Shown piece after piece: positions 351 to 30,300 of a stretch of 34,598 bases of DNA. Position numbers and translations under genes: made by a program. Every line of letters begins with the position of its first letter. Within the stretch, counting starts at the first letter, position 1. Below the pieces are notes generated by a model. That model worked only from the letters and a program-made list of their open reading frames with translations. It did no database searches and was not told the origin of the DNA. Source of the stretch: Reclinomonas americana ATCC 50394 (Eukaryota); assembly GCA_048213135.1 (NCBI GenBank), contig PS015127.1:84473-119070 (forward strand), read 5' to 3'.

Positions 351-918
351 CTTTGACACGATTGGTCTCCTGCTGCGACCCACTCCCACCTCGCGCACGA
401 TCCGTCGACTGCGTGGAGCTCGCTGTCGATGGTCTCGGCGGCAACTACACACCGACAGAAAAAAAAAACAACATGAGCAGCCACAAAAACGAGCGGGCCC
501 TCTCACTCATCAACACACACACAACTGCATCAATCGATGTCGACATTCCACCGCCCATCGCCGACATGTTAGACAGTGGAGGTAGTGGTGGCGGTGGTGG
601 CGGCGGAGGTGTTGGTGTGCTGCCTGTCCTCAAAGTGCGGTTCTCGACACGATACACTCCGCCTCCATTGCTCATTGCTGGTGAGCTTGCCTGCATGAGC
701 ACCTGCTGCTGTTGTTGTTGTTGTTGTTGATAGTACATTTGCTGCTGTTGCTGGAGCTGCTGGAGAGTCTGTGGTGGCGCGGGACCGGCGCGAGGTGGAG
801 GCAGAGTGGAGGAGGAGGAGGAGGATGACATGATGCCGCTGCCATTGGAGCCGCTGCCAGAGGAGGAGAATGAGAGGCGGCCGTTGACGGAGGCGGCGGG
901 GGAGGCTGCGTATGCCAT
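351..918 (-). CDS. 5' part of a gene with a Ser/Gln/Pro-rich N-terminus, possibly a kinesin-like protein; partial
   Basis: Exons 918-526 and 444-351. Spliced product MAYAASPAAS...SIDALPPRPSTASSTQSTDRARGGSGSQQETNRVK. The ending 'NRVK' resembles the start of a kinesin motor domain (N-I/V-x-V-x-V-R-x-RP), but the motor itself is not visible. Confidence 0.45.
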
Positions 919-1570
919 GCGTGCGCGCGTAAATGGTGGACTAGATTTGGTCGGTCGGTGGAAATTCGGTCGATGTGTACAGTTTTCTTTGCGATTCAGG
1001 TGCGGATCGGCACGAAGCGGTCTGCAATAGCTGGTGCTTGTAGGAGATGATTATACGGTGGCTTGTGCTGGTCTTGCTGCCGGTCCGCAATGTGGATTTC
1101 AAGCATTGCGCAATTGATGGAAATTCGATTTCGATTTCGATTTCAAGTGCATGCAGGAGGCTGTTTTTGCATCCTTCCCCGACCTGAATTCGATTGCAAT
1201 TGGGCTTCGCGTCGTCGTCTCATCGTTGACATGCACGACCGGTGAGCCAATCGATCCTCAACTTCCAGTTTTCGAATTTCCTTGTCGCTGAAGCGCAGAT
1301 GCATGCAGGTCCGCTATCCTGGCGCGCATCCTTCCCCCGTACACACCTCGCCTCGCCTCGCCCAAGCCATTCCCCAGCTTGCATGTTCCTTGAATTTTCG
1401 TGTTCGTGAGCTTTCATATCGCGAGCAACAAAGTCCGACAATCCTCTCAATCGCAACAGAGGTGCGCGCATCGCGACGAAACACTCCTTTGCTCATTTGT
1501 GTCAGAGAACACACCACCACTCACTGTGTACGGCACCTCCAGACACCCAACACACAAACACAGACAAAAA

Positions 1571-3067
1571 ATGACACGCGCTGCGCTGATGCTCTGCGCG
1601 CTGTTGGTGCTGCTGGCCGTGTGTGGTGCGTGATCTCGCCCCCCCCCCACCTCTCCCTCTCCCACTCCCACCACTCACTTTTTTTGTGTGCAAACGCGCA
1701 GGCCTGGCAGCAGCCAAGCACGGTGAGGGCCACGAGCAAGCCGAGCGTGACCCCGCCACTCACGCTCTCGCCGTCAAGTACGGCTTCAACCCGCCCGTGG
1801 TGGGCGGCACCACCTCCACCACGCCGGTGAACGAGGCCGCTGCCACACCCACAGAGGCACTCCCTCAGGTCCAGGTGGACCCCATTCCAGAGTTGCGCGC
1901 GCACGCGAGAAACAATGAGAATGCCACGTGTGTTCATTGCTGACTTTCTTTGTTGTTCTACACTAGGGCGCCGCTTCCTCACCCGCCGGTCTTCCGTGTG
2001 CCGCCGACGCCGACTGGCTCGTTTGTGCACCCGACCCCGGCGCCGCGTCAAGCGGTGAATCCGTCGACGGAGGTGGTGCCGGTGGAGTTTGAGGTGGTTG
2101 TCGTCGAGGAGATTGATGTGCCGCCGCCGCCGCCGCAGCCAATGCGCGGTGCTCGCCCGTGTAGTGGCCATGGTGGCTTCTGGTCGCGCATCTTTGGTGG
2201 CCGCCACGCGCCGCCGCCGCCGCCGCCGGGTGACATGGAGACGCAGGAGGCGGGTGACGACAACCACCATCACCACCACCACCACCACCATCACGGCCAT
2301 GGTGACGGTGAGCGCCGCCACGGCCATCACCACCACCACCACGAGCATGCCGAGGAGTACGACGCTGCTGGCGTGCCTGTGGAGGGCGGTGATGAGAACC
2401 AGCACGACCATCACCACCATGGACGCCACGGCCNNNNNNNNNNNNNNNNNNNNGCTGATATTTTTTTGTTGCTCACCTTGGTGACCGACAACAGAGGAGA
2501 TTGGCAAGACGAGCCACTGCGTGGCTGGCTGCTGCGCCTCGAGCACCGCGTGCTTCTTTGGTGGTGCTCTGGCCCTTGTGCTCCTCCCGCTGTCGTGCCT
2601 GTTCCGCAGCCGCAAGGTCCGCCTCGGCGTCGGTGCCGGTCTGGCGATCTGCTCCCTGCTGTCGGCCACTGCCCTGTTGATCTTCGGCACCGTGGGCTCG
2701 TACCACGATGAGGCGATGGTGAGTGAGAGAACGAGGATCAAAAATTGTGCGTGTCGTCAGGCGAATCCGTGAACTCACTTTTTTTCGGTGATCAGCGCGT
2801 CATGTCGTCGTCGAACGAGCACGCTCTGGGCGGCAACTGGACGGTCATCACCCTGGCCATTGGCATGCCGCTGTTCATTGTGGCCTCGTGGGCGCTGGTG
2901 GCCATCACCGCCTGCTACCGCCGCCTGCCGTGCCGCGGACAGAACGGCAACAACAACAATGGCGACGAGTCCATGTCGGACATGGAGTCCAACTGCCCGT
3001 CGAACCCCGCCGCCTATGTGCCGCTGCCGCAGGACGATTCTGTCCAGCCGCTGCTGGCGCAGCCGGT
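1571..3067 (+). CDS. Signal-peptide, His-rich, multi-pass membrane protein of unknown function; internal gap, 3' end in gap
   Basis: Exons 1571-1625, 1702-1891, 1967-(gap 2434-2453), about 2495-2718 and 2796-3067+. N-terminus MTRAALMLCALLVLLAVCGLAAA is signal-peptide-like. It has poly-His tracts and about three hydrophobic helices (FFGGALALVLLPLSCLF; LGVGAGLAICSLLSATALLIFGTV; WTVITLAIGMPLFIVASWALVAITACY). Confidence 0.7.
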
Positions 3068-3087
3068 NNNNNNNNNNNNNNNNNNNN

Positions 3088-3230
3088 GCCCTCGCTCCCC
3101 CTCTCCGCCCTCGCTCCCCCTCCTCCGCCCTGCTCCCCCTCCTCGCCCTCGCTCCCCCTCCTCGCTCTCGCTCCCCCTCTCGCTCTGCTCCCCCTCTCGC
3201 TCTGCTTCTCTCCTCTGGCCTCGCTCTGCT
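3088..3230. repeat. Imperfect C/T-rich (CCCTCGCTCC-like) low-complexity tract
   Basis: Visible directly. Lies downstream of the GPDH donor at 3253, so probably intronic. Confidence 0.8.
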
Positions 3231-3253
3231 GTGAGTTTTTCCGACACACGCAC

Positions 3254-3856
3254 CATCTGCAGCGTATCCTGCGTGATGCCCTTGCTCGTCGACACCAGCG
3301 GCACCGTCGGCGGAATCAGCTCCTACACGCAGCGGAAAACAGTGAGCAAGAACGCCACCTCCTTTTGCTCGACAAAGCACACAGCACCTTGAGGGCCGAC
3401 AAGAACTCCAACGATCCCTGCACGGGCACCGCATGCACAATGAAATCGACGGCATCGAGTGCATCAGTGGCCGATGTGGTCGCCGAGATGTTACTCGGCA
3501 GCTTCACGGTGTCAAACGAGCGCGGGTTGCGGTTCTCCTCGTTGATGGTCTGACACACACACGTCATCAGCATCATCATTCGCGACAGTCGATGCATCAT
3601 CACTCGCACCTTTGCCTGGTCGTCGCGACGCACGAGCATGCGCACGTGATGTCCGTTGAATGCCACCGCACAAGCCATGGCAGTGGCGTATGCACCGCCA
3701 CCAAACACACACACATTGTGCACCACACTGGCGGCAGCAGCTGCTGCCGATGCCGTGCTGTGTGGATTACCATGAGCGCAAGCGAGCGAGCGAACAGGTG
3801 AAGGAGGAGAGAGAGTGAGAGAGAAGAGAGGGGGAGAGCTTGACTTGCCTTGCCAT
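3254..3856 (-). CDS. gpsA: NAD(P)-dependent glycerol-3-phosphate dehydrogenase (GpsA-type), N-terminal half; remainder lost in gap
   Basis: Spliced MASTASAAAAASVVHNVCVFGGGAYATAMA (Rossmann motif)...INEENRNPRSF...VKLPSNISAT...DFIVHAVPVQ...PLVSTSKGI. Introns at 3848-3758 (GC-AG), 3609-3550 and one at about 3387-3323, plus a donor at 3253. Confidence 0.9.
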
Positions 3857-4319
3857 CGTGATCAAAGTGCAAACGAAATTGTGTCGCTTGATCGCACACG
3901 CTCGTCACACTGGCCTCTTGCCGCACGACTAGTGTGCTTCAGCGAGGCACCATGTGATCTTTTCCATCTCAGCCGCTGAGCAAACTGCTGCCCGAAACTT
4001 CATCCATCAGACTCTTCACGTTTCCACAGCGAACATCACCGCATCCTTCACCCCTCTGCTCCCAGTGTGAGATCCACAACAGCGGCGTCAAAGGAACACA
4101 GCAGTTCACTCATGCATTCACGAAACGCACCCGCTTGTGTAGGCTGGTTATTGGACTTTGGCCTACAGCGCGCGCGCGCCATTTCGATGGCAAACCCTTC
4201 TCGCGCGGGATTTGTGGCAAACCCCAAAATAGTGCATTTCACCCGTTTTTTCTATCTCTCTCTGAGCGCTGACAACCTCCGTCTTCCTCTCACAACTCTC
4301 TCCACCCAACTGAATCGCA

Positions 4320-5547
<1,228 letters not shown>

Positions 5548-5690
5548 ACAACCTAAGCCCCCGCTGCTGCCATTTCCCCCCCTTTGAGTTGTTGTGCACG
5601 CTGACGTGCGCACACTCGAAACCCTTCCCAATGGCGTGTCTACACGCCAAAACACCCCCACTTGGCCTCCAAAAGACCATTTCCTACGAT

Positions 5691-6452
5691 TCAATCATGA
5701 TCGTCATCATCATCCTCATCGTCGTCTTGTTCCTCTCTCTCCTCTCTTGCACAATGTCTCTGTGTGTTACACACATGAGCAAGACCACCTCACAACTAAC
5801 AGCGACCGCAAGTGAAGGCACCTTCAACACTCGCGCAATGAGCGCCACATCGTCATCACCTCTGTCGTCGTCGTCGTCGTGCTCCACCGATCGTCTCTTC
5901 TTCGCTCTTCTCTCTCCTCGCCCCCCTTCCTCCAGTTGCTCCACCGTCTCTCGGATCACGGCAGCAGCAGAGGACACCACGCACGACTCGGTGAGCTGCG
6001 GATTGTCGCGCAGTGCGGCTGATAGTCTCCACAGTCGCTGCCCTCACGACTCAGACAGGAGGAGAGTGGAAGACGATGCCGACGACGATCACACCTCTAC
6101 AGCAGCACGTCGCGCCTTTGCCCGCAACAACTCGCGCTCCATGCGATGCACTTGCACGCGCAATGCACCGATTTCACCAGCATCTTCTTCTTCCTCCTCC
6201 TCGCCACCCGCCTCCTCCTCCACATGCTGCGCCACTCGCTGCAGCATGTCGTCACTGAACCGCGCTGCACATGCACGCTCCACGTGCTGATGCACTGCAC
6301 CGGACTGATCATAAGTGTGTGAACAACTGGCCAGCGAGCGCGCGCACGCAACAGGCGTCCTCTGCGTGTCGCACGTCACCCGCGCTGCCCGTGACATGCT
6401 GCAGTGCGTACCGCTGCAGAAGCACACGACGGGCCTCGCACAGTGCGTCCAT
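5691..6452 (-). CDS. Hypothetical protein with a coiled-coil segment and an acidic C-terminus
   Basis: Four-exon model MDALCEARRVLLQRYALQH...EDALHQHVERACAARFSDDMLQRVAQHVEEE...RAAVERLWRLSAALRDNPQ...ARVLKRHCAREEREEQDDDEDDDDDHD*. First intron 6352-6295. Three GT-AG introns keep the frame. No family recognised. Confidence 0.65.
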
Positions 6453-6551: not shown

Positions 6552-9500
6552 ATGGAGGGCGACTACTCCGACCTGGTGTTGCCAGTCGCGCCACTGGTGG
6601 CGCTCTTTGGCAAGCCAGGCCTGAGTTCGAGTGTTGCCATGGCGCTCTCCTCCTACGCACACCCGGCCTCTGCAGCTGCTGGCGCCTCCTCGTCGCCACA
6701 GCTAATGGTCTCAGGCAGCGGCCTCATGTCGTCCTCCTCAGTGTCACTGATGAGTGCGGCACACACGGCGTCGGAGGCACTGGATGCGGCCTCGTCTTCG
6801 TCGTCCTCTGCCACTGCAGCCTCGTCGTCGTCGTCGCTGCTGGCGCGACCACCGCGCTTCTATTTTCGCTCGCTGGAGGTGTCAGATACTCTGCCGTACA
6901 GGAAGGAGGTGATTTGATTGACGATTCTCAAACACAACACTCGCTAACACTCCCACTCACACACTCGTGCACACTCGCAGCCGAAGCGCGTGTATGAGGC
7001 ACCGTTGCATGGACGCGGCATTCTCAAGCGCGGCTGGTTGAGAAAACGACTGGTGAGAGCGTGGCATTGACTCGCTTGTGTGTGTCAGATGACTGATCAC
7101 ACTTGCTGTCTCACCAGCAACTGGAGCCGGCGGTGATTGCCGTGGTCACAGACGTGGACCGCAACTCGTTTGTGCCGCGCGAGGCCGAGCTCGTGCAGCA
7201 TGTGAGCACGCTGAAGGCGCGGCATGCCAATCGACCCAACTTGCTGCTGTGCGTGGTGTTTGTGTACACGGGCGAGTTTGCCGACATCAAGACGTACGTC
7301 AATGCGTTCCGCCGCAAGGTCTGTGTCGCCCCCTCCCCCTACCGTTGCATGAGTNNNNNNNNNNNNNNNNNNNNNNNNNNNNNNNNNNNNNNNNNNNNNN
7401 NNNNNNNNNNNNNNNNNNNNNNNNNNNNNNNNNNNNNNNNNNNNNNNNNNNNNNNNNNNNNNNNNNNNNNNNNNNNNNNNNNNNNNNNNNNNNNNNNNNN
7501 NNNNNNNNNNNNNNNNNNNNNNNNNNNNNNNNTTTGTGTGTGGAGGGAGAGCGAAGACAACTGTGTATGAGTGCGTTTTCCAACCCACTTCCCCCCACTT
7601 CATTGCGCAGGTGGAGCAAGCGCTGAACTTGTTCCGTTCGCAAATGCGTTGGTACAAGACGCTGGTGTTCCCGCGACCGCTGCGATTTGTGCAGTTGTCG
7701 CGCATTGCCTCGCAGTACGAGCTGATGAATCGCACCATCCTCTCGCTGCCGAGGCAAGCCCGCATCTCGTACGATCGGTACCAGCAGAGTGTGTTTTACT
7801 TGCAGGTGAGATGGAGATGGGAGTGAGGAGGTTGCTGTCGTTGCGACGTGTTGGCTAACTCGTGCGCTCGCCTCCAGGCCATTGCCAACTACCGCCGCAA
7901 GCATCGTGACGAGTTCATGCAGCTGGAACGCGACTACCACGCTAGCCTGTCGTACTACATTGCCAGCAGTTCGCCGTACCACGCCTGCGAGGTCAAGGTC
8001 GGCATCTACACCGGCCAGTACTTTATCGTGTCGAACGACCCACTCTCTCTCCGTTGCGTCCACTGGGGGAAAATATTTCTCGTGTGTGTGCTGCGTCTGG
8101 CGTCCGAGCTGAACCGTCGATGCGTTGTGCAGGCGATGAGCCGTTCTCGGTGGCCGTCAACGACCACATGCATGTGCTGCTGAATCACATGCTGGAAATG
8201 GATTTCTCCCAGCGCGTGCTGCGCGCTCTGAACGACGCCTACGAGGCACTAAAGGCGCGCACCACTGGACGAGTGCTGTACAGCATTGCATGCGGAGTGG
8301 CGGATGAGCACTTTCTGAAGGGCAATTTTGCCGAGGCCAAGACGTTGCGTGTCTTTCTTTGGTTTCGCCCAGCTCCTCCTCGTGTTTGCTGAATTTTTTC
8401 GTCGCTCGCACAGTCTGTACGACCAAGTGGTTCCGCTGTACAGACGAGAGAAATTCTTCTCGATTCTGCGCCGACTGTTGCTGCGTGTGAAGCGATGTAC
8501 CGAGGTGCTGGAGGAGCCGCAAGATTATCTCGCCACGTTGTTGGATCTCGTCAGCGACAGTTGCGTCTGTTGACTGTGCATTGTTGTCTCGGCGGCGCGC
8601 AGAGTGGACTGACGTGCTCTTCTGTTCTTTTCGTGACAGCCGAGTTGGCGGATGGTGACGAGCGTCTGCGCTATTTGAACGAGTTGTTGCAGGCGGTGCG
8701 TGACAAGAGAGAGTAAGGAGAGAGTGAGGAGTGTGTGGTGGATCGCTGATTGGGGTTTGGTGTATATGTGTGTGTGGCACAGACGGACGAGATCCCACAA
8801 GTGCCGCGCTACTTGCCGCCGTTTGTGGCCGTGAATCACATCAAGGCATTCGACATGTCGCACGGCTTTGGTTTCGGTACGCTGATTGCCGTACTCTCTT
8901 TGTTCTTTACCACACTCTCACACTCTTCTCCACCACACAGTGGACTGCCTGTTCGGTTTCGACCGCTCCTCGTTGTACATTGAGCAGTCGACATCGTTCC
9001 GCGTGATGCTGCGTGTCCGTGCGCCCACCGAGGTGTTCTTCTCCAAGCTGCAGGTGCGCTGCGCTTCACTGCCTCCACCTGCTTCGCTTGTGTCATTTTC
9101 GGGCTCATTGCGGGAGTCGCACGCAGATCTTCTTCACCTTTGACGAGTACAACCTGACGCTCACCGACTCCAAGCGACTGCAAGTGGAGCGCTCATACAA
9201 GCGGAGCGCTGCAGCGTCGCCAGTGCAGAGCGTCGTGCTGCCACTCCCGGCCGACGGCAGCGGTGCGACTTTGCATATCTCCTTTTTTCGTCGTCCTTCT
9301 CGCTTGTCGTTGTCTCATCTGCGCGCTGGTGTTCACGCCTGCAGCGCCCACCTCGCCGCTGGAGCAACCGGCGTCGGAGCCATCCGACATGCATCTGTCG
9401 GCGCTGGCGCTCGAGTCGATGGACATGGACGACACGCAGGAAGTCGATCTCACCGAAGAGGCCGAGAACGACACCGAGCTGGTGGAGCATTCCATGCTGA

Positions 9501-12355
9501 CCGATGTTGCCGCCGCCTCTGCCGCCGCCGCAGCCGCAACAGCTGCAGGAGCGGGCTCGGTTGTGGTGGCTGCTGGCGAGGCGCCGATCATTGAGCTCAC
9601 CGAGGGCAACACATTCGAACCGGAGCCGTACGTTGGCGACGACAGTGCCCTTCGCCGGCGATCGCGTGGCAACAGTGTGCGTGCCGACTTGCTCGATGCC
9701 GCCATGCATGCCAGCCACCAGGAGGCACTGCTGTCGTCTGGCGACACCGAGTCGTACTCGTCGCCTCTGGTGGCCACTCCGTCTCCACGTGCGTTCACTC
9801 GCTCCGACGCGCTGACCGCTTGTCATAATTGCTGCGCTCATCTCATGCATCTCATTTGTGTGGCAGATCCTTTTGTGGGAGCTGTGGGACAATCGGCGTC
9901 CGAGGCCACACTCACTGCCTCGTCCACCGCAACGACTCCTGCAGCGTCGAGTGCCCCGATGATCGTGCCGACATTGTCGGTGAATGGTGCGGGAGACATC
10001 GATGTGAAGATGCGCGTGCACGGCCGTGCGCCGCACAGCTTCGACAGCGAGTCCGAGTACCAGTCAAGTGATGCCGCACACAGCGTGGACTCTTCCGAGG
10101 TAAGCCAGCAGCAGCAGCGTAGTCGACTCTTGTATTGCGCAGCTAACATGTGACACAGGCGGGGGCTCTGGACACGACCGGTGCATCGTTTGACGGTGCC
10201 GAAGACTTCCCTGTTGGTGCGCAGTCGCCGACAGGGTCAGCGGTGCATGCAACGCCTGTACGTACAGCGTCGGGCATGTCCAATGCTGTGGATTTCCCAC
10301 TCTCCGCCACGCCACCGCGCTCCGATCCGCTGGCCTCGAGCGAAGATTTCCCACTGTCGCTCAGTCCGCCGGCTGCTGCTGCTGCATCGGTGGCCGCCGC
10401 TCGCGGACTGTCGTCACCCATGGCGGATGCCGAAGATTTCCCCCTGTCGAGCACGCCGCCCAAGTCGGCCGCGCCAACGGTGACGGTGGCTCCTGCGCCC
10501 GCCAATGCTCCAGTCGCACAAGCTGTCGCAGCGCGCAATAGCGATTCCAGTCACCTGGCAGCCACGGCATCTGCCGCACCAGTGGATGGTGTGTGTGCTT
10601 CCATGTGGTGATACGTCTGTTGTGCCGACAGCCGCGCTGATTCTGTTGTTTTGCTGGGGGGTGCAGATGACGGTGCGATGGAGGTGCCGGAGGACGAGTT
10701 GATGCTGAGACCCGGCGAAATCAAGTCATTCGTCTTTCCGTTCACGTCGCATAGCGTTCGCACTGTGCAGGTCCGTGTGCGCCTCTTTGCGCTGGGAGAG
10801 TGAGTGTTTCTGTCCTTAACAATGGATCTTCACTGCAGTGCTTTGGTGTGGTTCTCGAGCTCGGCACCGATCCAATGCACGCCTTGCGTCTACAGTGGTC
10901 GTCGCCGAATCCAGTGTTCCAGGCCCACGAAATCAAAAAGGCCGCCGGGTCAGTGAAATGTCAGTCGTTCGCATCAAGCCGTTGCAGTCACTCACGTTGC
11001 TCGCTTTGCTGTGCAGTCTCTTGCGGTTCTCTCAGCGCATTCGGTGAGTGTTTCATCCTGTTCCACCCCCACCCACCCTCCGCCCTCCCCTGCATACACG
11101 TACACCAAGCATCTATGTTCATTGGTCACACAAATCTATCTACACACACAATGCCTATCGCGTCCACGCACTCTGCCGATGCCAACATGTCAGTACTTGG
11201 AAGTCAATGCACCGATATTCGTGTCACTGACCGCATGAGTGTAGTGTCTTGCCGCCGGTGGCCCAAGCATCGCTGTCGGTGCACAATTACCCGCCTGTTC
11301 TCGTCAACGAGCTGTGCCAAATGGGTTGGTGCCCCACTTCTCCAGCAATAATGCTCTTCTGGTTCCTGATCGGTGCACGATTCTCGCGCAGTGCTGGTCA
11401 TCGAGTCAAACGAGGATGACATTGTGCGCGGCGAGGTGACCATTTCGGCCAGTCCCGAGGTGGAGGTGTTTGACTCGGACTCGCCATCGGCGCCACCGCA
11501 CAAGGTGATTGCCATTGGCAACATTCGCCCACGCACTCGACTGCAGCGCTCGTTCTGGGTGCGCGCCAGCCGCTCGGAGAATCACACGCTGGAGATTGAC
11601 GTGCGTGCATATGCGAGTGCGCGTGCCCTATTACAGTTGTTCCTGATGGTGTTTCTTGTTGCAGTTTGTGTACTCCACCAAGCTGTTCGAGAACTTGCGC
11701 GTGCGCGCCACACAGCGCGTGCTTGTGGATGTGCCATTTGAGGTTGGCTTTGTGTGCTCTCAGGCGAACTCCACGGCCGATCGACAATCGCGTGTGCCCG
11801 AGAAGTCCGACTATGGTGCGTCTCTCTCTGTGGGGAGATAATCTGCTCTCCTGGTTTCTGTCTCGATCTTGACCTCCCGCACACAGAGTCGACCGTGTAC
11901 GACCGCAGCCGCCCGCTCATGCTGTTTGTCAAGCTGCGCAATCGCATGCTGTACGGCGTGAGTGTGACGCACGTCGGTGTGCAGCAAGTATCCGGGGCCA
12001 CCACCACTCCAGTGGCCGTGTTGCCGGGTGGCCGCTCTCTATGTTTCGTGTCTACATCGTTTGATTCGATGAGATCCGCGCGTCGCCTCTGACTTATGTG
12101 AATGATAGTGGTTCGACCTGATGATTGCGCATCCATGACGCTGGTGGTCGACTGCTCGCAGTCGGCTGAGGCCCTGCAGCGACTCGGTTCGCTGGTGTTG
12201 AAGTGCCAACGGTGACTTTACTTTGCGTGTGAGAGAGAGAGAGAGCGTGTGTTTTTCGGTAACTGAATCTGTTTTGTAGTGCGCCCGATGGTGTTGCACA
12301 CCCATCGACTCAATCCGAGGATCAGACTGGTGAGGGTTGGACGGAGTGTGGATCT

Positions 12356-12404
<49 letters not shown>

Positions 12405-17984: not shown

Positions 17985-19713
17985 ATGGATTCACGGACGG
18001 TGCGTCTGCCGCTCTTCTCTCACTCTACGTGTGTGCTCGTGTGTGTGTGCATGGAGCAGCGATGCAGCGCAGAGAGTGCTGTCTCGTTGTCTTGGTCGCC
18101 GTTTTTCTTCTGTCTGTGTACTGTGTTCTCGCAAGCACGCGTCCGGCGGGTTTCTGAAGTGGCTCTTTCGCACACTCACAGAGTTCGAGTGCCAACACAA
18201 CTGCGGAGCTCAACGAGCTGACGCACGCCATGAAGGGGTTTGAGCACGAGGTCCGCCACCAACGCCTGCATGCGATCTGTCTCGCTTCTGTTCACTCTCT
18301 CCCGTCTCAGCGATCCGAGTTTGATCGTTTTGGACTGGAAGACAGCGGGCTGGGCAGGTCTGATGGTGGGCGGCGAGTGTCGCTGAGCGCACTCACCACC
18401 AACAACAGCAAGGGTGCGCACGATTGCTGTCGCTGCTGCTCTGCCTTCACTTGTCCCCGCTCACCATGTGTGTGGTTCTCAGCGGTACTGGCCGCGCTGC
18501 GTGCGCTGCAAGACAAGATCCGCAAGCTCGAGTCGGAGAAGCGCTTCTACGAGGAGACATTGACGGAGACGAAGCGCAATGCGGAGGCTGTGCGTGAGGA
18601 CTTGGAGACTCGCATGCGGGAGCACGCTCAGAGGGAGGAGATTATCCGGAGAGATCGCGATGCACTGCAGCGTGATAGGAATGGTGGGCGTATGGCGGAG
18701 GGGAGAAGGGACAAGAGAGGGGAAAGAGAGGCGGAGAGTTGAGAGGGACATCGGAGGGGGAGTGAGAGCGAGTGCGTGAATGTGTGAGAAAGAACAGTGT
18801 GCTTGTCACGAACGAGAACACGCTGTCTGTGTGTGTGTGTGAGAGAGAGAGAGACTCTGTGTAGTGTCATGAGGGAGAACGCGGTGTAAGAGACAGGAGC
18901 TGTGCAATATCACGAGGGAGAACACAGCGTGTGTGTGAGAGCGCGGAAAGAGCTGAGCAATCCTGAGAGGAGAACAGTGCGTGTATAGAACGATTTCACT
19001 CGTGGTTCTCATGCGATGCCTCGTGCAGAGCTGGCCATGGCGCTGACGTCGGTCAAGGAGCAAGTGATACAATTGGAGACGGAGCTGCGGTACCTGCGGG
19101 AGGTAACCGAATCGACAACGCAGGAGAAGCGAGTGGCAGAGGTACTCGGCAACTCTTGTGTGAGTTTTAAGTGGAGCGCTGACCACTCACGGAGTCTTGA
19201 CACGACGCAGGCAAAATCATCGTCAAGCGAGCAGCGGATGCAGCGGGTCATTGATGAGAGCGGTCGGCGTATCCGGGAGCTGGAGCAAAAGCTGTCGTCG
19301 GCCGAGGATCGCGCACAGACAAATGAGCGACAGGTGAAGCAGCTGCAAGATATTTTGAATCACGAGACTACCACAAGGCAAGAGAGCGAGGCGCAGCGCG
19401 AAAAGGTTTGTGCGCGTGTGTGTGCAGATCATGTGAGCAAACAGCGTGCACTTTGCTGATGGGTGCGCCACGCAGCTCGACAAGGGCATGCGCGAGTTGT
19501 TGCAACTCAACGAGTTGCTGGTGACCAAGCTGACCATGGTGGAGGAGCAAAGGACAACAAACGCCATTGCCTCGGCCTCTGCAACACTGGCAGGTGGAAA
19601 GCGTGGGGTGCGTGAACAATAATGCCCTGCCATCCCCCCTCTTCCTCCCCATGTCACTCACTGTGTGCGAGCAGCGGAAAAAGACTAAGAAGAGTGCACC
19701 GCGCGCACCGGCT
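17985..19713 (+). CDS. Cep57-like centrosomal coiled-coil protein; 5' exons uncertain, 3' end in gap
   Basis: Spliced 'TNNSKAVLAALRALQDKIRKLESEK' closely resembles the Cep57 centrosome-localisation domain ([22 protein letters not shown]), followed by long heptad coiled coil. Confidence 0.65.
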
Positions 19714-20123: not shown

Positions 20124-23100
20124 CTCGTGCAACTCCCGGCGCAAACCCGCTGCATCACGGGAAGACTCCTCGCGCTCTCGTGTGCACGTCTGCAGTCGCT
20201 GATCGAGATCGTCAAAGGCCTTCAACGTCGGTCGCTCCTCCAGCTCCCGTCGACACTGCGACAGCGCCTCCTTGGTCGTGCTCAACTCGCTCTCGGCCTG
20301 ATCACGCTCGCTCGTCACGCGTTCCAGCTCGGTCTTCAATCGATCCCGTTCCGTCGTCGTGCGGTCGAACTCGGCACCGAGCAGCAGCTTCTCGGTGGAC
20401 ACGCGCTCCAGATCCGCCGTCAAGCGCGACTTGTCAATTTGCGCAAACTCCAACTCGGCGGCAACTCGTGCCTTCTCGCCCGTCACCCGGTCCAGATCGC
20501 TGGCCAGGCGCGCTTTTTCGCCATTGGCAAAGGCCAGCTCCGCCGATAATCTCGAACGGTCGCTAGTGGTGCGTTCGAGTTCCGACAAGAGTCGCACGCG
20601 CTCCATGGCGATGCGGTCGGTGGTGTCGGTGGCATCGTCACGAGCGGCAATCAGCTGGTCAAATTGATTGCGCGTGAGCTCCTCCATTTGCTTGGCGGCG
20701 CTGCGCTGCCGCTCGATTTCCGCCTCCTGACGCGAGATCGTCTGCGTGCGTGCGCGCGCAAAGTCAACACTTCGAACACTACGGTGGCACAGAGATGAGA
20801 AGTACACACACCTCCTGTTGCTCGGCGTTGAGGCTGCGGTTGCGTTCCAGCTCCGAGGTCACCCGATCGAGCATGGCCGTTTGCTCTTCGAGTTGCGAAC
20901 AAACATCGTCCTTCACCTGGCGCAGCTCGCGCATCTCGACCGTCAACATGCCACACCGCTGCGTGTACTCTTGCAGCTGCCGTTCGAGCTCCGCCACTTG
21001 ACGCCGTCCACCACCACTACTGTCGCCATGCCATGCCTCGCCCGAGCCATCCTGCATCAGCGACGCACACAATGTCACGAGAGGCGACGAGGAAAGGAGA
21101 ACAAGGAGAAAGAGAGACCGCAACGTACCTTGCTAGCAGCCGCGGCAGCCGTGGTCTTGTCCAGCAATTGCTGACGCAGTGTCAAGACTTCGCTGGCCAG
21201 ACGCGCCTTCTCGTCCAGCCGCTGCTGCAACTGGGCACGCATCGCCGTCAGCTCGCGCTCCGACTCGCCATCCACACGCTCCCGCTCCGAGCGCAGTCGA
21301 GCGACTTCGCGACGCAGCGATTCCACCTCCTCGCTGACCACGCTGGTGTGCACCAACTGTGACGGTGGTGGTGGGGCAGTAGTGGCGGCGGCGGCGCGTG
21401 ACAACGTCGCCCGCTCGGCTCGCCGAGCCTCCAACTCCACGCGCAACGCCTGCGCCTCCGCGCGAGCCTTCTCCACCTCCTCCACACACGACACGCGCGA
21501 GGAGCGAACCTCGATGCGCAGCGACTCGAGATCTACCCGAAGCGCATTGTTTTCGCGGCGCAGCTGCTCCTCTGACCGCTGCAACGACTCGAGATCGGCG
21601 TGGAGACGTGCGTTCTCGCGCCGCATGGCGGCCGACCGATCCGGCGAACCGTTGCTTCCTGCGCCCATCGACACGTCCATCACATCCGCCGCATTCCTCT
21701 GGTGCTGCTGCTGTTGTTGCTGCTGCTGCTGTACGCGCAACGCCTCCAACTCCAGTCTCATCAACGAGTTCTCGCGTCGGAGTGCTGCGAGCGCAGGTGG
21801 TGACTGCGGCGAGGTGACGAGCGATGACGGTGACGAAGCACCGGCCGCGGCGTGATTCTGTGCATACATCCGCTCATTGTCGGCCGTCAGTCGCGCAATG
21901 TCACCCTGCTGACGCTGCACCAGCAGCAGGAGGCGGGCATTTTCGGCTTTGCCGCTGCTCCACTCTGATGACGGTGAGGACGACAGACGTGTGTGAGTGT
22001 CAGGAGGGAGAGGGAGATATGAGTGCCAGCAAGACCTTCGTAGTGCTGCGTGGCCGTTCGAGCCGTCTGCTGTGCCGCGGTCTGCATGTTCTCACACGTC
22101 AGCATGGTGCGCACGTACGAAGGCAATAGATCTTCGACTCACCAACTGCGTCTGCAACCGTTGCACCTCCTGCTCCAGCTGCGCTACGCGTGCCCGATTC
22201 GTGTCCTCGCGATCACCGTTCCCGGACGTATCTGCGTTGCATAGTGAGGGGCGATTCTGGTGCGAATCGACCGCGCTCGAGGAACACTCACCTCTCTTGC
22301 TGTGTCGCAGTTCGTCTTCAAGCCTGCACACCTCATTCTGTGTCAGCATGCCATCTCTATTCTCCTCCCCTCCCCACTCTACTCTACAAACCGTCGCACA
22401 GTCTCAGTGAGACGCTTGCCGTCGGCGCGCGCAGTCGACACTGCCGCGTCGCGCTCGTCCAGCACGCGCTTCAACACCTCCACCTCGTCCCTGTAAAACT
22501 CCAGCGATTTGCTCTGACCAACGAAATGAGTCCGCTGATCGTAACGACTCAAGCAACATCACCACAGCAAACCTTTTCCTGCATCAGAGCCTCCAGTCGA
22601 TGCAACTCTTGCATGTCGGAGGCCCGTCGATTGGTGCGATCTTGCAGCTCGGCCAGTTGCCGCCGCAATTTTGTACACCTTTCGCACGGATGAGTCTCCC
22701 ATTACTCTTTCTCTCTTTCCACTCCCCAACTTCATACACCAACCTCTTCTCCACATCGTCCAGCTCTGCGACAGCATCGTTGCGCTTGGCGTCGGCTTCG
22801 GCAAGCTGTGTGCATGCACGCCACAGTGAGCCACCTTTCTGTCTCTCTCTTTCCACCGTCATCTGTCGTACCACGCACCCGATCTCGCATCGACGACAAC
22901 TCGGCCGCACACGAGGCACGCACGCTGTCGAGCGTACTCTGCAGCGCCACGATCCTCTGATCTCGTTCGCGAATCGCCTCTTCGTAGTCCAACTTGCTGC
23001 GCTCGAATTCCTCGTGCTTGGTGTGCTTCTTCTCGGCCTCCAGTCTGTGACTCCCACGAGTTGAGCGACGCAGGAGTGGTCAGCCTCAAACACTCACACA

Positions 23101-24101
23101 CAACCACACACCGCTGCACGACGCGCGTCAATCGCGACATTTCATCCACCGCCCGTTTGCGTTCCATGTCGGCGCGCTCCTTGTCCTTTTGCAGCGTGGC
23201 AATCTCCTTAAAGTGCTGCGTGCGCAACTCCAGCAGCTCCAAGTTCTTCTCGCTCAACTCGTTGCGAATGAGCATCACATAGCTCTTCTCCACCAGATTC
23301 GACGAGCGCTCTCCGTGGGGCACCGCTTCGTGCTCCACCGGCGAGTGATGCCGTCTTGCAGCTCCGCCGGCACCCGACGACGCCGCTACTGGTGGTGGCT
23401 GTGGCGGCGGCGGGTGCGACGAAAGCGGAGCAGATGCCGACGGTTGTTGTTGCGAGGCTCCCGCATGGCCTGTGCAATGCATGAGACAGACAACTGCATG
23501 ATCGCGAGGGCACGCACGCATGCCAACCATTGCCAAACGCATCCAGCTCGTACAGATCGCGCTGCTCCAACGCATCCCCGGTAAACAGTGGCGACGAGGC
23601 TCGCACATGCATCACTGGCGGAGGCGAAGGATCGCGAGATCGCCGCGACGACGGCTGCTGTTGCCTCGGCGGCAACATGCCAGCTGCGCGCACTCAATCA
23701 GCACGCACTCCTCCCTCTCTCTCTCTCTCTCTCTCACACAGTACCTGTTTCTCGTCGATACGACGGCTGCGTCTGCTGCTGGTACGGCTTGACAGGCGTG
23801 ACCGCGTCATTGAAAAAGTACTTGTCAAGCAAATGCGCCTCGCGCGGTGCAAATCGCGACAAGAACGCGTCCTTGTCGATCTCAGGAACACTCAGAGGCA
23901 CACCAGCACCGCCTCCACCGCCATTCGTCGCCGACCCGGCAGACGATCGCAAACTGTGTGATGAATGAATGACAGAGAAGGAGTCCACATCGCTTTCGCA
24001 GGCACACACGCTTGATCGTTGCATGCGTGCGCATGTGTGCCTCTGTGTGCGTGCGTACGTGTATGCGTGGGTGTTGCTCGTGTGTGTGTGGCTCACCTCA
24101 T
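20124..24101 (-). CDS. Large coiled-coil protein of unknown family; 3' end in gap
   Basis: About 13 GT-AG introns join E/R/L/Q-rich heptad exons in frame, starting from ATG AG|gtgagc at 24101 (MSLRSSAGSATNGG...). Includes poly-Q and 14-aa repeats. Confidence 0.75.
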
Positions 24102-24394
24102 TCGTTCCCGCCGAAATCGTCACTGATCGACAGCAGCGATTGCGTGTGCGTCTCACTCTCTCACACACTCACGCACAGTCGCCCTCCACTGTGACACTGA
24201 TCACTCGCCAAGCGCGGCAAAAGACAACTTCGAGAAGAGGGCGAGAAAAAAAGTCACGAAATTTCACTTTGCATTTCACAACACAACAACACATCGCGGC
24301 TGAGAGCAACCGTTTTTGTCTTCTTTGTGCGTCTGTGTGTGTGTTTTCCTCTCCACTGTGCGGTGTGAGAGAGAAAGAGTAAGAACCAGACGCG

Positions 24395-27300
24395 ATGGAG
24401 CCACACGTGCGCAACGATGACCACGACGCTGGAGGCACGACACACGCTGCAGCAACGTTGCGACGCACAATATGTTCCGGACATGGCACTCAGCTCTCAC
24501 TCACTCACACACTCTTCTCCCTTCTCCACACAGGCGTCTCTCTCCTCCACTGCGCTTCCCCGCGCCGGCAGTACCGCTGCCTGCGCCACCGCCAGTGCCG
24601 CAGCCGCCGCACTTTGGCGCAAGTGTCTCCCCACGCAGTGGCACACCACCGCCCTCACAGCGACTGCCACCGCTGCCCACCGACGCTGCCAGCAGTGTCA
24701 GACGTTGCGCGCGCGCACACACACACACACGCACACAAGTAAGCGTCTAACATATACACACACTCTCTCCATCAATGCACAGCGTTGAATGCGGCTCGAT
24801 TGCTGGCCGGTCGCGGCTTCAACAATGCCGCGTCACCGGCGTCGCCGACGTCGTCGCCGCGCTTTGCTCTGGCGACCACATTGCCTCCACGTTTGGCGAC
24901 GCTGCCGGCCGCGGGAAGCGCTGAGCCGGCGGCAGCACGCTTGTCAGATGTGCGACTGCATTTGCCACCGGCGCCGTTTGCCATTCGACCGAGTCGCGCG
25001 GTGCATGATGACGAGGATGATGAGGGCGGTGATGATGAGGCGCCGCCGCCACCGCCGCCACCGCAATCGACGGCTTCGGCGTTGCGCCCGGTGACACCGT
25101 TGCAGCCGTTTGCCATGTCGATGAATCGATCGCTGGGCCCGCGTCCAATCCCGGGACAGGTGCCGTCGCCGCCGCTGGATGCGCCGTTGCAGTTCAATCC
25201 GCTCTTTGCGTCGCGCGCTGTGCGTCACTGTCGTCGTTTATTTGTGCATGCCATCGTCTCACTATGTTCTTGTTTGCTCGATGAACAGTTGTCGCAGCTG
25301 CCGNNNNNNNNNNNNNNNNNNNNGACTGGCGTTGAGCGAGCCACACCTCGCGTGTCGGTGGATTCGGGTCGACGTGCGGCCGAGGCGCTGTTGCCGGCAT
25401 CGTTTGTGGCACAGCCGCAGCAATTGCGTCCGCCGCAGCCCGTGTCCACCACCATTGGTGTGCCACACTTGTCGGGGGATGGCGGTGCGCGTCGGAGCGA
25501 TGTGTACTCGTTGCCTGTGGCTCAGTTTGAAGACTTGCGGCTGGCCGCACGCGTCCTGTCACAGCAGCAACAACAACAAGAGATGCAACTACAGCAGCAT
25601 TTCCAACAGCAACTGCAGCAACATCAACAGCAGCAGGAGGAGGAGGAGGCGAAAAAGTCCGGAGTGCGGCGTCGATGCACCGCGAGACGCTTCTGGATAA
25701 TCTTCTTGATTGTTGCTTGTATCCTCTTGCTGCTCGGCTCCGCGGCTGGAGTCTTGTATTTGTACCTGCGGCCAGAGACGGTGCCGCAGAAAGTCACCAG
25801 TGCGTTCTCCCTCGCGCCTCGTTTTCCCGTTCACTGTTTACCATTTATTCACTTTTGATTCTGCATGTGTGTCCTTCCCTCCCTCCCACCAGCCACCACC
25901 ATTGTCGTTGGATCAACATCGGGAAGCGTCACAACCACAGACGCCACACTCACAGTTCGTGGCGGTGTTGCCGCGTCGTCCGGAAAGTTCCGTTCTCGTG
26001 TCTCCCCGCTGTGTATTACCATGTTCGTTCTCATTTTTTGCGCTTCGTGCGCGTGTGCAGCATATCGACGAACAACACGGACGTGGGCTACCGCTTCTCA
26101 TCAACATCAACAGGCATGTTTGCTGTCAGCGTTCTCAATCTGGCATCGTCTGTAATCCCCGGCTCCGGCGATTCGCGCATCGTCTCCGAGCGTGTGTCGT
26201 CGTCGTCGTCCTCCTCCTCCTCCTCCTCCCCATCTGCAACAATGTGCAGCCCAACGGCAGCCAGCGACGGCCCGACTGCCCCGCCGACAACTCTTGGCAG
26301 TCCTAGTAGCAGCAATAGTCGTAATTATAGGAATCAGCCGCGGCAGGCGGCAACTGCCGCCCCGCAGTGCCAGTCGAGCGCCGGCGGCACCGCCTCGGCC
26401 AATGTCGGCGTCCAGGCGCGCGATGTCGACACGGTGCGCAGCAGCACCTCGGATCTGGCGTTTTTGCACGACGCCAAACAAGTGTTGACGTTTACGGCGC
26501 TCTCCGACTCGTTGGAGGCCGCACTTATTGACGCCAAGTTGCGCCTTGCCGTGCCTTGTTAACTATATTTCCCTCCCAGTGTCTGAATTATCGTTCGTCG
26601 CACGCAGCGTGTACATTATGCAACGCAGTCTCTACCTGGGCCACGCGGCATCGGACTCAGCCACCCTGTCGGAACGCTACCGTGCTCGACGGCGTGTTTT
26701 GCAAGACGACTCGGGTGTTCTGCGCCTCAATCCGGACTCGGCGTACTCGTCGGTCACCATCGGACAGTCGACGTTGGTCGTCAATAATAGCACGCTGACT
26801 GTCGCCGGTACCGTCTATGCGCCGGGGTACCAGCTCTCCAGCGCACCCTCTGCGTCCGGCGTGTTCTACGCCAACTGTTGCGTCTCCACTGCACGATCGC
26901 TTTGCCTCTGTTGCTGACAAACTCTTGGTCTTTTGTTAACGCTCAGCACATGTTGTCATTGGCAATTCCGGCCAGAATCGCATCAAGGTACCGGCCTCCA
27001 CCAAGGATCCTGTTGTTATCACGGGCCCTCTTGAAGTGGAGCAACCTATCTTTGTCGGCCTTGACGATGTCGGCAATCGGATCCTGAGTCTGACCAGTAC
27101 CAAACTGACGGTGGGCGACAGGCAAACGACCACCGACGTGGAGTCGGTTGGCCGCCTGGCGGTCACGGGCCCGAGTATTGCCCTCAACTTGCGCATGGCT
27201 CTTGTGTCGGGTGTGTCTGACTTGACGGTCGGAGTCGACACGGATGTGGTGAGAATACCGGGCATGCTGAGCGTCTCCAAGGCGTCCACCTTTGCGGCCG

Positions 27301-30300
27301 CCCTCACGGCACAATCCACATTGACGGTCACTGGAGCAACTACACTTCAAGGCGCCGTCACGGCATCGTCTTCGGTTACTGTGACCGGTACGCTTTCCGT
27401 GCAGGATGCGCTGACGGCACGCACACTGGCGGTCACTGGTGCCACGAATCTCGGCTCCACACTGTCGGTGTCCTCTGCCGTCACGCTCTCGTCGACATTG
27501 GCGGTGACCAGCGACGCCACATTATCGGGCGCGCTGATTGTCAACGGCGTGGTGCAGGCTCGGAGCTCGGTGGTAGTCACTGGCGATACGACCATCGCCG
27601 GCACTCTGACCACCAACGGAGCGGCGGTCCTCAATGGCTCAGTGACACTGCCAAACGGCAGTGCGCTCACCGTCGGCACTGGCGGTGCAGTATTCAACGG
27701 CACCCTGCGCACTAACGGACAGACGACTCTGGCTGGCCCTGTGCAGATCAACAACGGTAGTCTGCTGACTGTCGGTACATCGGGAGCCACATTTGCTGGT
27801 CCGATCACGATGCAGGCCGGTCAGCTGCTGACTGTCGGCACCGGCGGCCTCACGCTCGGCGGCGCGCTGCAAGTCAATGCGGCATCGTCATTCAGCGGCT
27901 CTGTGGCCGTGACTGGCGCAAATACGTTGACAGTCGGCACCGGAGCTGCGACATTCAATGGCCCACTGCGTGCCACGGCCACCTCCGTCACCACGCTCGA
28001 CGGCACGCTGGCGGTCAATGGCGCCGCAACATTCAGCGGAGCCGTAAGCGTGACCGACACCGGTTCCTTCGCGGTCGGTGTCGCTGGCATCGTCTCCAAT
28101 GGACCAATCAGTGTGGCCAATGGCGTCACACTCACGGTTCCGTATCTGCTTGTCGTTTGCTGTGCGCCCACTCACGTCCACCATACTCATGCGTTTTTGC
28201 TTCGGTATGCAGGTGGGCACCGGAGTGACGACGCTTGGCGGCGAATTGCGTGTGAGGTGTGTGTATTTTCCTTGAGTCTTTGTGTGCGCGTGATAATCGT
28301 GGCTCATCTCCGCTCTTCTCCTTTCCTCGCCAAAACAGCGGTGTCACCACCTTGTCTGGTGCGCTGACCACGAACGGCACGGCGACATTTGCCAATTCGG
28401 TTACTCTCGGCAACGCAGCGTCGCTGACGGTGGGCACTTTGGGTGCGACCTTCAACGGCCCTGTAACGCTGTCGGCCGGTCAGCAGTTGACAGTCGGCTC
28501 TGGTGGCCTGACGGTGAACGGATCGCTGATCACCACGGGTTCATCGACCTTTGGTGGTGGCGTCACCTTCAACAACTCAGTCAGCGTCAACGGCAACATC
28601 ACTGTCGCCGATGCAAAGCTGGTGACCATTGGTACGGGCGGCTTGCGAGTAACGGGCTCGGTTCAGGTGGACTCGAGCGCAGCGCTCAACGGTTCAGTGA
28701 CGATCGCCAACGGGCAGTCATTCACTGTCGGCAACGGTGCCAGCGCCATTCGCGGAACGCTTACCGTCGATGGTGCCACTACGTTTACGACCACAGCCGT
28801 ACACACTGGTGCCACCACCTTCAACGGCACTGTGACTGTTGCCGATGGCAAGTTGGTCACTATCGGCTCTGCGGGCATTGCGCTGAATGGGCCACTCGCG
28901 CTATCCGGCGCCAACACGCTGACACTGGCCACTGGGACGGCGACATTCGGGGGAGCTGCGACGTTTAGGTACGTGTGTGTATGTGTTTGTGTTTGTGTAG
29001 TCTGTTCGTTTCTCTCAGTCTGTCTGCTCACCTCCTCCTTCTTCTTTACGCAACAGTGGTGCAACCACCGTCAACGGTCAGCTGACTGTCAATGGCCAGT
29101 CGTCGTTTGCGAACAGCGTTGCGTTGACGGACGCCGCCAGTCTCACGGTGGGTGCGCTCGGTGCCACGTTCAACGGCCCTGTGACTATCAGCGACACGCG
29201 CTTGCTGCGCGTTGGCACGGGTGGCGTTACAGTTGCCGGAGTGACGACGCTGAATGGCGCGCTCACCGTGGGCGCCGCCTCGCAGTTCAACGCACCCATT
29301 GTGGTGTCCAACGGCAACGATGTGCGCGTGGGCACTGGTGGACTGGCTGTCACTGGTGCTATTAGTGCGCAATCGACGTTGAATGTCACCGGAGCGGCGA
29401 CGTTGCAGTCTTCGCTTGCTGTCACTGGTGCTACGCAGCTCAATGGTGTACTGCAAGTTGGACAGGCCACCACACTCAACAGCACGTTGCTCGTTTCCGA
29501 CACGGCCACCATCGGCGGCGCTGTCAACGTAAGCGGTCCCACAAACATGCTCGGTACCATGTACGCGCAGGGAGTTGCGCGCTTCGATGCCACGTTGAAC
29601 GCCAATGCTGCGGTGAATGTTGGTACGACACTGTCGGTCACCGGCAACACCTCAGTCTCCACGCTTGTAGCGTCCGGGCTGGTAACTGCTGGCAGTCTGA
29701 CCACCGCCGGCACTATAAATGCGTTGGGTCTCATTATCGGTGGCAGTCTGTCGACCGCAGGCACGCTGTCTGCGACCGGTTCACTGACTGTCGGTAGCAT
29801 CACGACGGGCGGCGCACTTGCGGCCACGGACTTGGTGACTGGCGGCAGCTTCACAACCACCGGTAGCATCAGCGGCGCCACGATGAGCACTGCCGGTCTG
29901 GTTTCTGGTGGAAGCCTAGCTACTGCCGGTACAGCAACTGTCACGGGCACCATTACTGGTGGCANNNNNNNNNNNNNNNNNNNNCCGGCAGTCATCAGGC
30001 CCGTCACCGTCACCGTGCCGCCAGTCGCAATGCTACCGCCACTCACCAGGCCCGACGTGCTCACCGAACCGCTCTGCAGCGACCCCACAGTTGTCACACT
30101 GCCGCCCGTAATCACACCAGCCGCCTGCACAGTGCCGCCTGTCGTCAGGTTACCCGCCGTCACCAGACCGCCAGCGATCACGGCGCCACTCGTCGTGAAC
30201 CCGCCGCCGCCCGTCACCAGGCCGGCAGCACTCACCGAGCTCGCACTCGCCAGGCTGCCCACAGATGCTGCGCCGGTGGCACCAATCGTGCCGGCCGTCG

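Follow-up and report, generated by a model that had tools for sequence, protein, structure and literature searches.

A class of GTT splice donors in a Reclinomonas americana genomic window with a 5' splice-site motif apparently displaced by one base into the intron

In a window of 34,598 nt from Reclinomonas americana ATCC 50394 (the whole stretch of DNA that was analysed, to which all counts and coordinates in this text refer), 16 of the 82 splice donors begin with GTT and carry the conserved G at intron position +6 rather than at +5. The explanation that we consider best, with a probability of roughly 0.55, is that these shifted donors belong to ordinary U2-type GT-AG introns whose 5' motif lies one base deeper in the intron. 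An earlier note on this DNA had proposed an abundant second class of 5' splice sites with the consensus shifted by +1, and the proposal is borne out in that the exonic part of the signal (loss of G at -1) and the intronic positions +4, +7 and +8 are both displaced. That the exonic part of the donor signal appears to move together with the intronic part is new in this analysis. Both classes of donors are apparently one pattern, G-[G/U]-U-N-N-G-U-(G), which is cut at the first GU.

The window is eukaryotic and gene-dense, with approximately 59% G+C and 11 N gaps, and the evidence base consisted of its sequence, homologs from protein libraries, and published papers. Intron-exon models were curated by hand for 13 gene pieces, with an uninterrupted reading frame being required, and they hold 78 complete introns and four further donors whose acceptors lie inside N gaps. 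Dynamic-programming gene parses, which used codon scores and GT/AG ends only, were rejected for defining introns because they were too noisy, either over-splitting genes or chaining through everything; a YAG + CTNA acceptor filter gave a usable draft, in which in-frame boundaries were still misplaced. The resulting donors comprise 57 with G at +5 (the canonical class, in which GTGCGT, GTGAGT and GTGTGT are the commonest), 16 GTT..G donors with G at +6, three bulge-like donors, five other donors and one GC-AG donor. The previous statements that most donors have G at +5 (57/82) and that the shifted class covers about one fifth of introns (19.5% of the donors) both agree with these models for this window, and the shifted share is 14/80 when two ambiguous sites (525 and 12043) are left out. 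T at +3 together with G at +6 is common to 16 of the 24 GT donors that do not have G at +5. In conclusion, the class of predicted shifted donors is confirmed as real within the window.

Displacement of the exonic part of the motif was seen at position -1, where G is present in 53 of 57 canonical donors vs 1 of 16 shifted donors (Fisher p=4e-11). Donors that begin with GTT but retain G at +5 have G at -1 in 8/8 cases (p=1.2e-5 vs the shifted class), and G at -1 is also present in all nine other weak donors; the loss of -1G therefore tracks G+6 and not T+3. The composition at -1 of the shifted donors (A7, C5, T3, G1) resembles that of the canonical donors at -2 (A24, T14, C11, G8). At the canonical -1G frequency, the probability of finding G in 1/16 is 7e-17, and it is 0.23 if the -1 position behaves like canonical -2.

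Displacement of the intronic part was examined at positions +4, +7 and +8, which are independent of T+3 and G+6, the two positions that define the shifted class. G is found at shifted +4 in 11/16 donors, similar to canonical +3 (39/57, p=1.0) and different from canonical +4 (4/57, p=1e-6). T is found at shifted +7 in 12/16 donors, compared with 39/57 at canonical +6 (p=0.76) and 11/57 at canonical +7 (p=6e-5), and G is found at shifted +8 in 8/16 donors, compared with 32/57 at canonical +7 and 12/57 at canonical +8. When the T at +3 was deleted in silico, the shifted donors became GTGCGT (six donors), GTGCGC (three), GTTCGT (three), GTCCGT (two), GTGTGT (one) and GTGCGA (one), of which GTGCGT and GTGCGC rank among the commonest canonical hexamers. 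Since -1G is lost and positions +4, +7 and +8 match canonical +3, +6 and +7, the whole motif would be displaced by one base.

The same counts bear on a second geometry, the bulge +2/+3 register, in which U1 would pair with -1G, G+1 and U+2, one U would bulge out, and pairing would resume at +4. Such a bulged U would fit the finding that the extra base is a U directly after GU in 16/16 donors, the register has been established experimentally in human cells according to the available text of Tan et al. 2016 (PMC4856993), and three other donors in the window (GTGCTGT, GTACTGT and GTCTTGC) look like cases of an extra U elsewhere in the motif. Nevertheless, it predicts that the pair between -1G and C9 of U1 is kept and that -1G is enriched, which is contrary to the frequencies at -1 given above, and the data are approximately 10^15 times likelier under the shifted expectation for -1G than under the bulged-U expectation. 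In duplex folding with a generic U1 5' end, the lowest-energy fold was bulged for only one of the 16 donors (28137, the one with -1G). The displacement of the exonic and intronic parts of the motif by one base thus appears to favour the shifted register, and we consider a bulged U very unlikely for this class.

The three bulge-like donors, all of which have -1G (3/3) and thereby mark a separate group, are the following:

3323–3387, minus strand: aag|GTGCTGT, in gene C (glycerol-3-phosphate-dehydrogenase-like, minus strand, ATG at 3856); -1G, extra U at +5 and G+6, in an open-reading-frame model.

23684–23744, minus strand: cag|GTACTGT, in gene K (minus strand, one of two coiled-coil genes in the window); bulge-like, the sole frame-compatible donor.

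21965–22035, minus strand: aag|GTCTTGC, in gene K; bulge-like, the sole frame-compatible donor.

In the lowest-energy duplex with generic U1, GTGCTGT and GTACTGT pair at -1, +1, +2, +3, +6 and +7, leaving +4/+5 unpaired, while GTCTTGC pairs at -1, +1 and +2 only. These donors look like canonical-like donors with an extra U at +4/+5, and would form a small group apart from the shifted class.

All 16 shifted donor strings that had been listed earlier, as well as the string of an alternative donor at 12028, were found as described, with the coordinates and strands given for them. The corresponding introns, with donor, length, gene and supporting observations, are as follows:

445–525, minus strand: GTTGTGT, 81 nt, gene A (low-complexity open reading frame, minus strand); weak or ambiguous, with an in-frame GTGTGT 3 nt downstream; without splicing, the TAG of the putative acceptor would serve as the stop codon of the reading frame.

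1892–1966, plus strand: GTTGCGC, 75 nt, gene B (His-rich membrane protein, plus strand); the sole frame-compatible GT donor, joining open frames from the ATG at 1571; read-through meets a stop 49 nt in; branch motif CTGAC.

6295–6352, minus strand: GTTGCGT, 58 nt, gene E (small gene, minus strand); splicing gives a 101-codon open reading frame from the ATG at 6452; read-through meets a stop 41 nt in; the sole alternative donor (at -27) is non-canonical.

8053–8132, plus strand: GTTGCGT, 80 nt, gene F (TRAPPC11-like, plus strand); reading-frame continuity alone; the sole alternative donor would give a 47-nt intron, below every other intron here.

8344–8413, plus strand: GTTGCGT, 70 nt, gene F; collinear with Pfam Foie-gras_1.

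8560–8639, plus strand: GTTGCGT, 80 nt, gene F; reading-frame continuity alone; read-through meets a stop 11 nt in; branch motif CTGAC.

12043–12108, plus strand: GTTTCGT, 66 nt, gene F; ambiguous with the donor at 12028 (GTGGCC); reading-frame continuity alone.

14533–14591, minus strand: GTTTCGT, 59 nt, gene G (SDA1 homolog, minus strand); 131 of 134 junction-spanning homolog alignments ungapped.

13820–13893, minus strand: GTTTCGT, 74 nt, gene G; 92 of 97 alignments ungapped; the sole frame-compatible GT donor.

13598–13657, minus strand: GTTGCGT, 60 nt, gene G; 80 of 84 alignments ungapped; solved SDA1 chains contiguous.

24457–24533, plus strand: GTTGCGA, 77 nt, gene L (large Gly/Thr/Val-rich repeat protein, plus strand); the sole frame-compatible GT donor, in an open reading frame from the ATG at 24395.

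24704–24782, plus strand: GTTGCGC, 79 nt, gene L; open reading frame; read-through meets a stop 44 nt in; branch motif CTAAC.

25987–26060, plus strand: GTTCCGT, 74 nt, gene L; open reading frame; in-frame alternative with +5G, GTCCGG, at -9.

26538–26607, plus strand: GTTGCGC, 70 nt, gene L; open reading frame; read-through meets a stop 22 nt in; in-frame alternative with +5G, GTTGGA, at -27.

26877–26946, plus strand: GTTGCGT, 70 nt, gene L; the sole frame-compatible GT donor.

28137–28212, plus strand: GTTCCGT, 76 nt, gene L; G at -1, unlike all other shifted donors.

The +5G alternatives at 25987 and 26538 would delete three and nine residues, respectively. The ambiguity at 12043 had already been pointed out and is upheld, since both this donor and the one at 12028 keep the frame and neither has G at +5.

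The earlier description of these introns as normal in length (58–81 nt), ending in YAG and preserving the frame was also upheld by the curated models: 16/16 start with GT, 13 end in CAG and three in TAG, and all models have open reading frames once each of the 16 introns is removed. Left unspliced, 15 of the 16 introns would shift the frame or bring a stop codon into it; only 13657 (60 nt, no in-frame stop) could be read through, and this intron is supported by homologs. A branch-like CTNA(Y) motif, with its A located 12–32 nt from the 3' end, is present in 16/16 shifted introns, at a median distance of 23 nt vs 19 nt in canonical introns. The features of U2-type introns, namely GT and AG ends, a branch-site motif, restoration of the frame and collinearity with homologs, were thus found in this class. 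An introner family was considered as the origin of the class and was rejected, as the Jaccard index of 6-mers in intron interiors was 0.008 between shifted introns and 0.012 between canonical introns, with no similarity beyond the donor.

Three of the shifted junctions are backed by homolog alignments, one by Pfam and one by a repeat motif, and the other 11 by reading-frame continuity alone. The SDA1 counts listed above were obtained with 151 homologs, as the alignments that span a junction and the number of these that are ungapped within 6 residues. The spliced SDA1 model aligned to a 726-residue homolog (P0001) with E=1e-83 and without gaps across the three shifted junctions. In the human chain 8fl2_NT, the exons around 13657 match residues 296–347 and 350–391; the two residues in between are accounted for by the last exon residue and the split codon, so that no gap is left, and two other SDA1 chains behave alike; two short SDA1 exons gave no matches in the PDB. 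The exons around 8344 match positions 154–207 and 211–256 of the Foie-gras_1 profile with no indel, although the E-values are weak (0.05 and 0.0064). The junction at 28137 restores the repeat motif LTVGTG, which occurs in eight copies in the gene L protein. For gene F, whose model has 24 introns and a 1356-codon open reading frame with weak Foie-gras_1 matches, 7 of 10 exons were without a Pfam match, and the exon 8135–8341 gave no PDB matches and no matches in a word-index search.

In order to count donors without guidance by the consensus, the subset of introns was considered for which the frame, the GT and the acceptor leave a single donor (18 of the 78 complete introns). This subset includes four shifted donors (1892, 13893, 24457 and 26877) and 10 canonical donors. 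Furthermore, the two strands together contain 51 copies of the heptamer GTT[GTC]CG[TCA], of which 15 are donors, whereas none of the 23, 33 and 117 copies with A, C or G at +3, respectively, is a donor.

These observations make it highly improbable that the class is an artefact, whether through an error in sequencing or assembly that added the T or through mis-called intron boundaries. The assembly does contain 11 N gaps, and sites 525 and 12043 are ambiguous. However, deletion of the T would leave GTGCGT donors that still do not have -1G, unlike canonical donors, random errors would be expected to disrupt exons as well, which in fact stay open over lengths of up to 1190 nt, three junctions are fixed by homologs, and 4/18 of the single-donor introns belong to the shifted class.

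A different placement of the cuts was also considered, in which both ends of the intron would lie one base downstream, giving introns of the form TT...YAGN and thereby a new intron type; to our knowledge, no such type has been described. With these boundaries all 16 exons would gain a terminal G, and the protein would be the same in 5/16 cases and changed by one residue in 10. On the other hand, an in-frame TGA would arise at 26877 ahead of about 920 open codons, and the introns would end in a variable base (T5, C5, G4, A2), whereas the YAG one base upstream is invariant. It is hardly conceivable that this placement is the correct one.

The shifted donors are unevenly distributed, with 6/10 donors in gene L, 3/8 in gene G, 4/25 in gene F and 0/14 in gene K (permutation p=0.0014 by gene), and among 65 pairs of neighbouring introns, seven consist of two shifted introns (permutation p=0.0036). 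Such clustering, both by gene and between adjacent introns, may be a hint that use of the second register is gene-specific and possibly regulated.

Several results weigh against the interpretation of the class as ordinary U2-type introns read in a shifted register. C is present at shifted +5 in 15/16 donors vs 28/57 at canonical +4 (p=0.0012), which a pure shift does not predict. Mean energies of pairing with generic U1 were -7.0 kcal/mol for canonical donors, -1.2 kcal/mol for shifted donors and -2.55 kcal/mol for 1093 exonic GT decoys, and 75% of these decoys were at least as stable as the median of the shifted class. With a G5-variant U1 end similar to that of Mastigamoeba, the energy of the shifted class (-4.3) is at the level of the decoys (-4.0). 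Because the modelled pairing is at the decoy level, pairing of the U1 5' end alone would be insufficient to account for the choice of sites. As to frequency, in-frame ties were resolved in favour of canonical donors, so that the denominator is partly guided by the consensus, the shifted class includes two ambiguous sites (525 and 12043), and its frequency and junctions are those predicted from the window sequence. Moreover, as the class is clustered in few genes, the fraction in the window may overstate the fraction in the genome.

The pairing with generic U1 is very weak for the shifted class in every register, and the human model of strong shifted-register pairing would therefore not carry over unchanged. 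With the G5 variant, the shifted register was the lowest-energy fold for 7/16 donors, and three further donors folded in this register but lacked one terminal pair (A3:+7 or C9:+1). The near-invariant C at +5 may pair with a base that generic U1 does not offer, and a G at position 5 of U1 would account for this C. The earlier note had raised a possible variant U1 or U6 snRNA or an altered U1C/LUC7/PRP8 interface.

It is possible to interpret these pairing results in terms of two readers, with a second U1 paralog or another small nuclear RNA (snRNA) that pairs fully with GUUSCGU, e.g. one that is changed opposite U+2, so that two donor codes would be served by two dedicated RNAs. Generic U1 does not separate the class from decoys; in a model with a hypothetical 5' end complementary to GUUGCGU, the shifted donors reach -9.6 kcal/mol, compared with -6.1 for canonical donors and -4.3 for decoys. 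The strong preference for C at +5 suggests pairing with a G, lineage-specific U1 5' ends have a precedent in Entamoeba and Mastigamoeba, and clustering by gene would suit a separately regulated reader. Against this, the modelled end was invented and not observed, no snRNA was found in the window, an Rfam search of its whole length at gathering thresholds having given no matches, and only a standard U1 is reported for the lineages Thecamonas and Mamiellales that share the preference for C at +4. We regard two dedicated readers as unlikely.

Alternatively, the 5' signal might be largely dispensable, with the branch site, the 3' site and the length defining the intron, and with GTT..CGT being read by U6 or proteins or arising from compositional or mutational bias. 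The predicted U1 pairing at or below the level of decoys would agree with this explanation, as would the good CTNA branch motifs and YAG ends within 58–81 nt in 16/16 introns, and pairing of U6 in non-canonical registers is proposed for human in the available text of Kramarek et al. 2024. However, a dispensable signal would be expected neither to retain T+3, C+5, G+6, T+7 and G+8 at canonical proportions nor to lose -1G, and the five truly odd donors (GTGATT, GTCTCA etc.) all retain -1G. This explanation is thus decidedly unlikely.

Under the preferred explanation, a motif displaced by one base in ordinary U2-type introns, the usual class would have the form G-G-U-N-N-G-U-(G) and be cut after the first G, and the second class would have the form G-U-U-N-N-G-U-(G) and be cut before the first G, the two differing at one position (G or U). 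An early reader of the motif, presumably the U1 5' end, would bind both classes in one geometry, with G+1 of the second class sitting in the place of the exon-end G. Cleavage would be directed to the first GU of the pattern, and the exact cut would be fixed later on this GU by the catalytic spliceosome (U6, U5 and Prp8). We infer that U1 reads the motif, that the additional base is tolerated by U6, and that the scheme is valid genome-wide. A broader claim, that the organism has a routine two-register donor code covering about a fifth of introns, with either a variant snRNA as second reader or a spliceosome in which reading and cutting are habitually uncoupled, is possible but rather doubtful.

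The window contains further genes, in addition to those named with the donors above:

4320–5547, plus strand: histone H3 gene with three introns.

Methylenetetrahydrofolate dehydrogenase/cyclohydrolase (MTHFD) gene, with the family confirmed by a protein-atlas search with one exon.

DnaJ-domain gene, recognised in the window.

Second coiled-coil gene, in addition to gene K.

Several other observations were made on these genes and their introns. At the 5' end of gene C, a probable GC-AG intron of 91 nt (3758–3848, minus strand; aag|GCAAGT...CACAG) was found, and the GC donor at 3848 is the only one that keeps the reading frame from the ATG at 3856. In gene K, the intron at 22679–22743 (minus strand) apparently ends in AAG and not YAG, with the donor GTTGGT and the branch motif CTCAT 13 nt upstream. 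A 69-nt intron at 19142–19210 (plus strand) has the odd donor GTACTC, a length that is a multiple of three, and no stops; a canonical GTGAGT is located in frame 18 nt downstream (51-nt intron). An alternative 5' site may be used here, or the intron may be retained.

Micro-exons are predicted at 15848–15863 (plus strand, 16 nt) in the MTHFD gene, where it fits the conserved ...GIIELLTRSNIK... stretch, at 5168–5186 (plus strand, 19 nt) in the histone H3 gene (PHRFRP), and at 11017–11043 (plus strand, 27 nt), and a first coding exon of only 5 nt (ATGAG) at 24097–24101 (minus strand). The histone H3 gene encodes a divergent H3 (e.g. LCCIHAHR) that is approximately 90% identical to H3 sequences on metagenome contigs. 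A search of metagenome contigs with an H3 exon gave 80 loci, all with 88–91% identity and none a close relative, and a search of the same kind with an SDA1 exon found no relatives. Finally, 29985–30791 and 31627–32433 form an 807-nt inverted repeat, about 90% complementary, of Gly/Thr/Val-rich repeat coding sequence, which flanks the N gap at 31186–31461; either two gene copies lie head to head here or the repeat was produced by the assembly.

In human cells, pairing of U1 to 5' splice sites in a shifted register is regarded as a rare rescue mechanism. If the present interpretation is true, an organism in which about one fifth of introns are shifted would make this register part of mainstream donor recognition, and would provide a natural system in which to study how the cut site is fixed after U1 departure. 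In such a genome, about 20% of the introns would be overlooked or misplaced by gene finders trained with only one donor matrix, and the unguided parser used here misplaced several shifted sites. The loss of the exon-end G, together with the strict C at +5, leads to testable predictions on the U1 5' end and the U6 tolerance of the host. These results would be of relevance to splicing specialists and to annotators of this genome.

In the open literature, supplements and subscription papers excluded, no organism was found to be reported with an abundant class of GTT..G shifted donors. Some known systems resemble the class in part. In the available text of the Roy and Bowser 2022 preprint, Mastigamoeba is described as having the donor GUGCGC and a changed U1 5' end with G at position 5, a preference for C at +4 is described for Thecamonas and Mastigamoeba, and Thecamonas and Mamiellales are described as keeping a standard U1. 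Mamiellales donors are also known from other work to favour GTGCGT with C at +4. As far as the preprint text describes them, Entamoeba and Mastigamoeba resemble the present case in their departure from GTAAGT-type donors and in that the snRNA may have evolved along with its splice sites, and Mastigamoeba also in its C at +4 (GUGCGC there, GTGCG[T/C] here). They differ in having a single transformed consensus in the normal register, whereas two registers coexist here.

U12-type introns are similar in that two donor classes occur side by side in individual genes, so that a second RNA might be suspected as reader. The U12-type donor consensus is [A/G]TATCCTT. A U12-type identity of the class was rejected, as none of the 16 donor strings resembles this consensus and the shifted introns do not differ from the major class here in their branch motifs and 3' ends. 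Minor introns make up approximately 0.36% of mammalian introns according to the available text of Tan et al. 2016 (PMC4856993), compared with 19.5% for the shifted class in the window.

The tandem donor of STAT3, as presented in the available text of Kramarek et al. 2024, is a case in which the positions of U1 binding and of cleavage are likewise uncoupled and U6 pairing is flexible. It concerns one human exon with two GUs 3 nt apart and was studied experimentally, whereas a whole class with a 1-nt offset was deduced here from sequence. The bulge +2/+3 register, to which 68 of 201,541 human sites belong in the available text of Tan et al. 2016 (PMC4856993), shares with the present class the extra U right after GU and the displacement of the downstream consensus by one base. 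It differs in that pairs at -1, +1 and +2 are kept there, whereas -1G is lost in 15/16 donors here.

Shifted-register 5' splice sites read by U1 were reported by Roca and Krainer 2009, as described in the available text of Tan et al. 2016 (PMC4856993), with which the account of that work in the earlier note agrees; in the same text, all curated non-canonical registers together amount to 2.1% of 201,541 human sites. The human shifted sites and the present donors are alike in that GU is followed by U at +3, the consensus lies one base downstream, G+1 replaces the exon-end G, and the cut is made at GU. The human motif is AAG-type and the register there is a rare exception, whereas the motif here is GTT[G/T/C]CG[T/C/A], and the register, known here from sequence alone, is that of 16 of the 82 donors.

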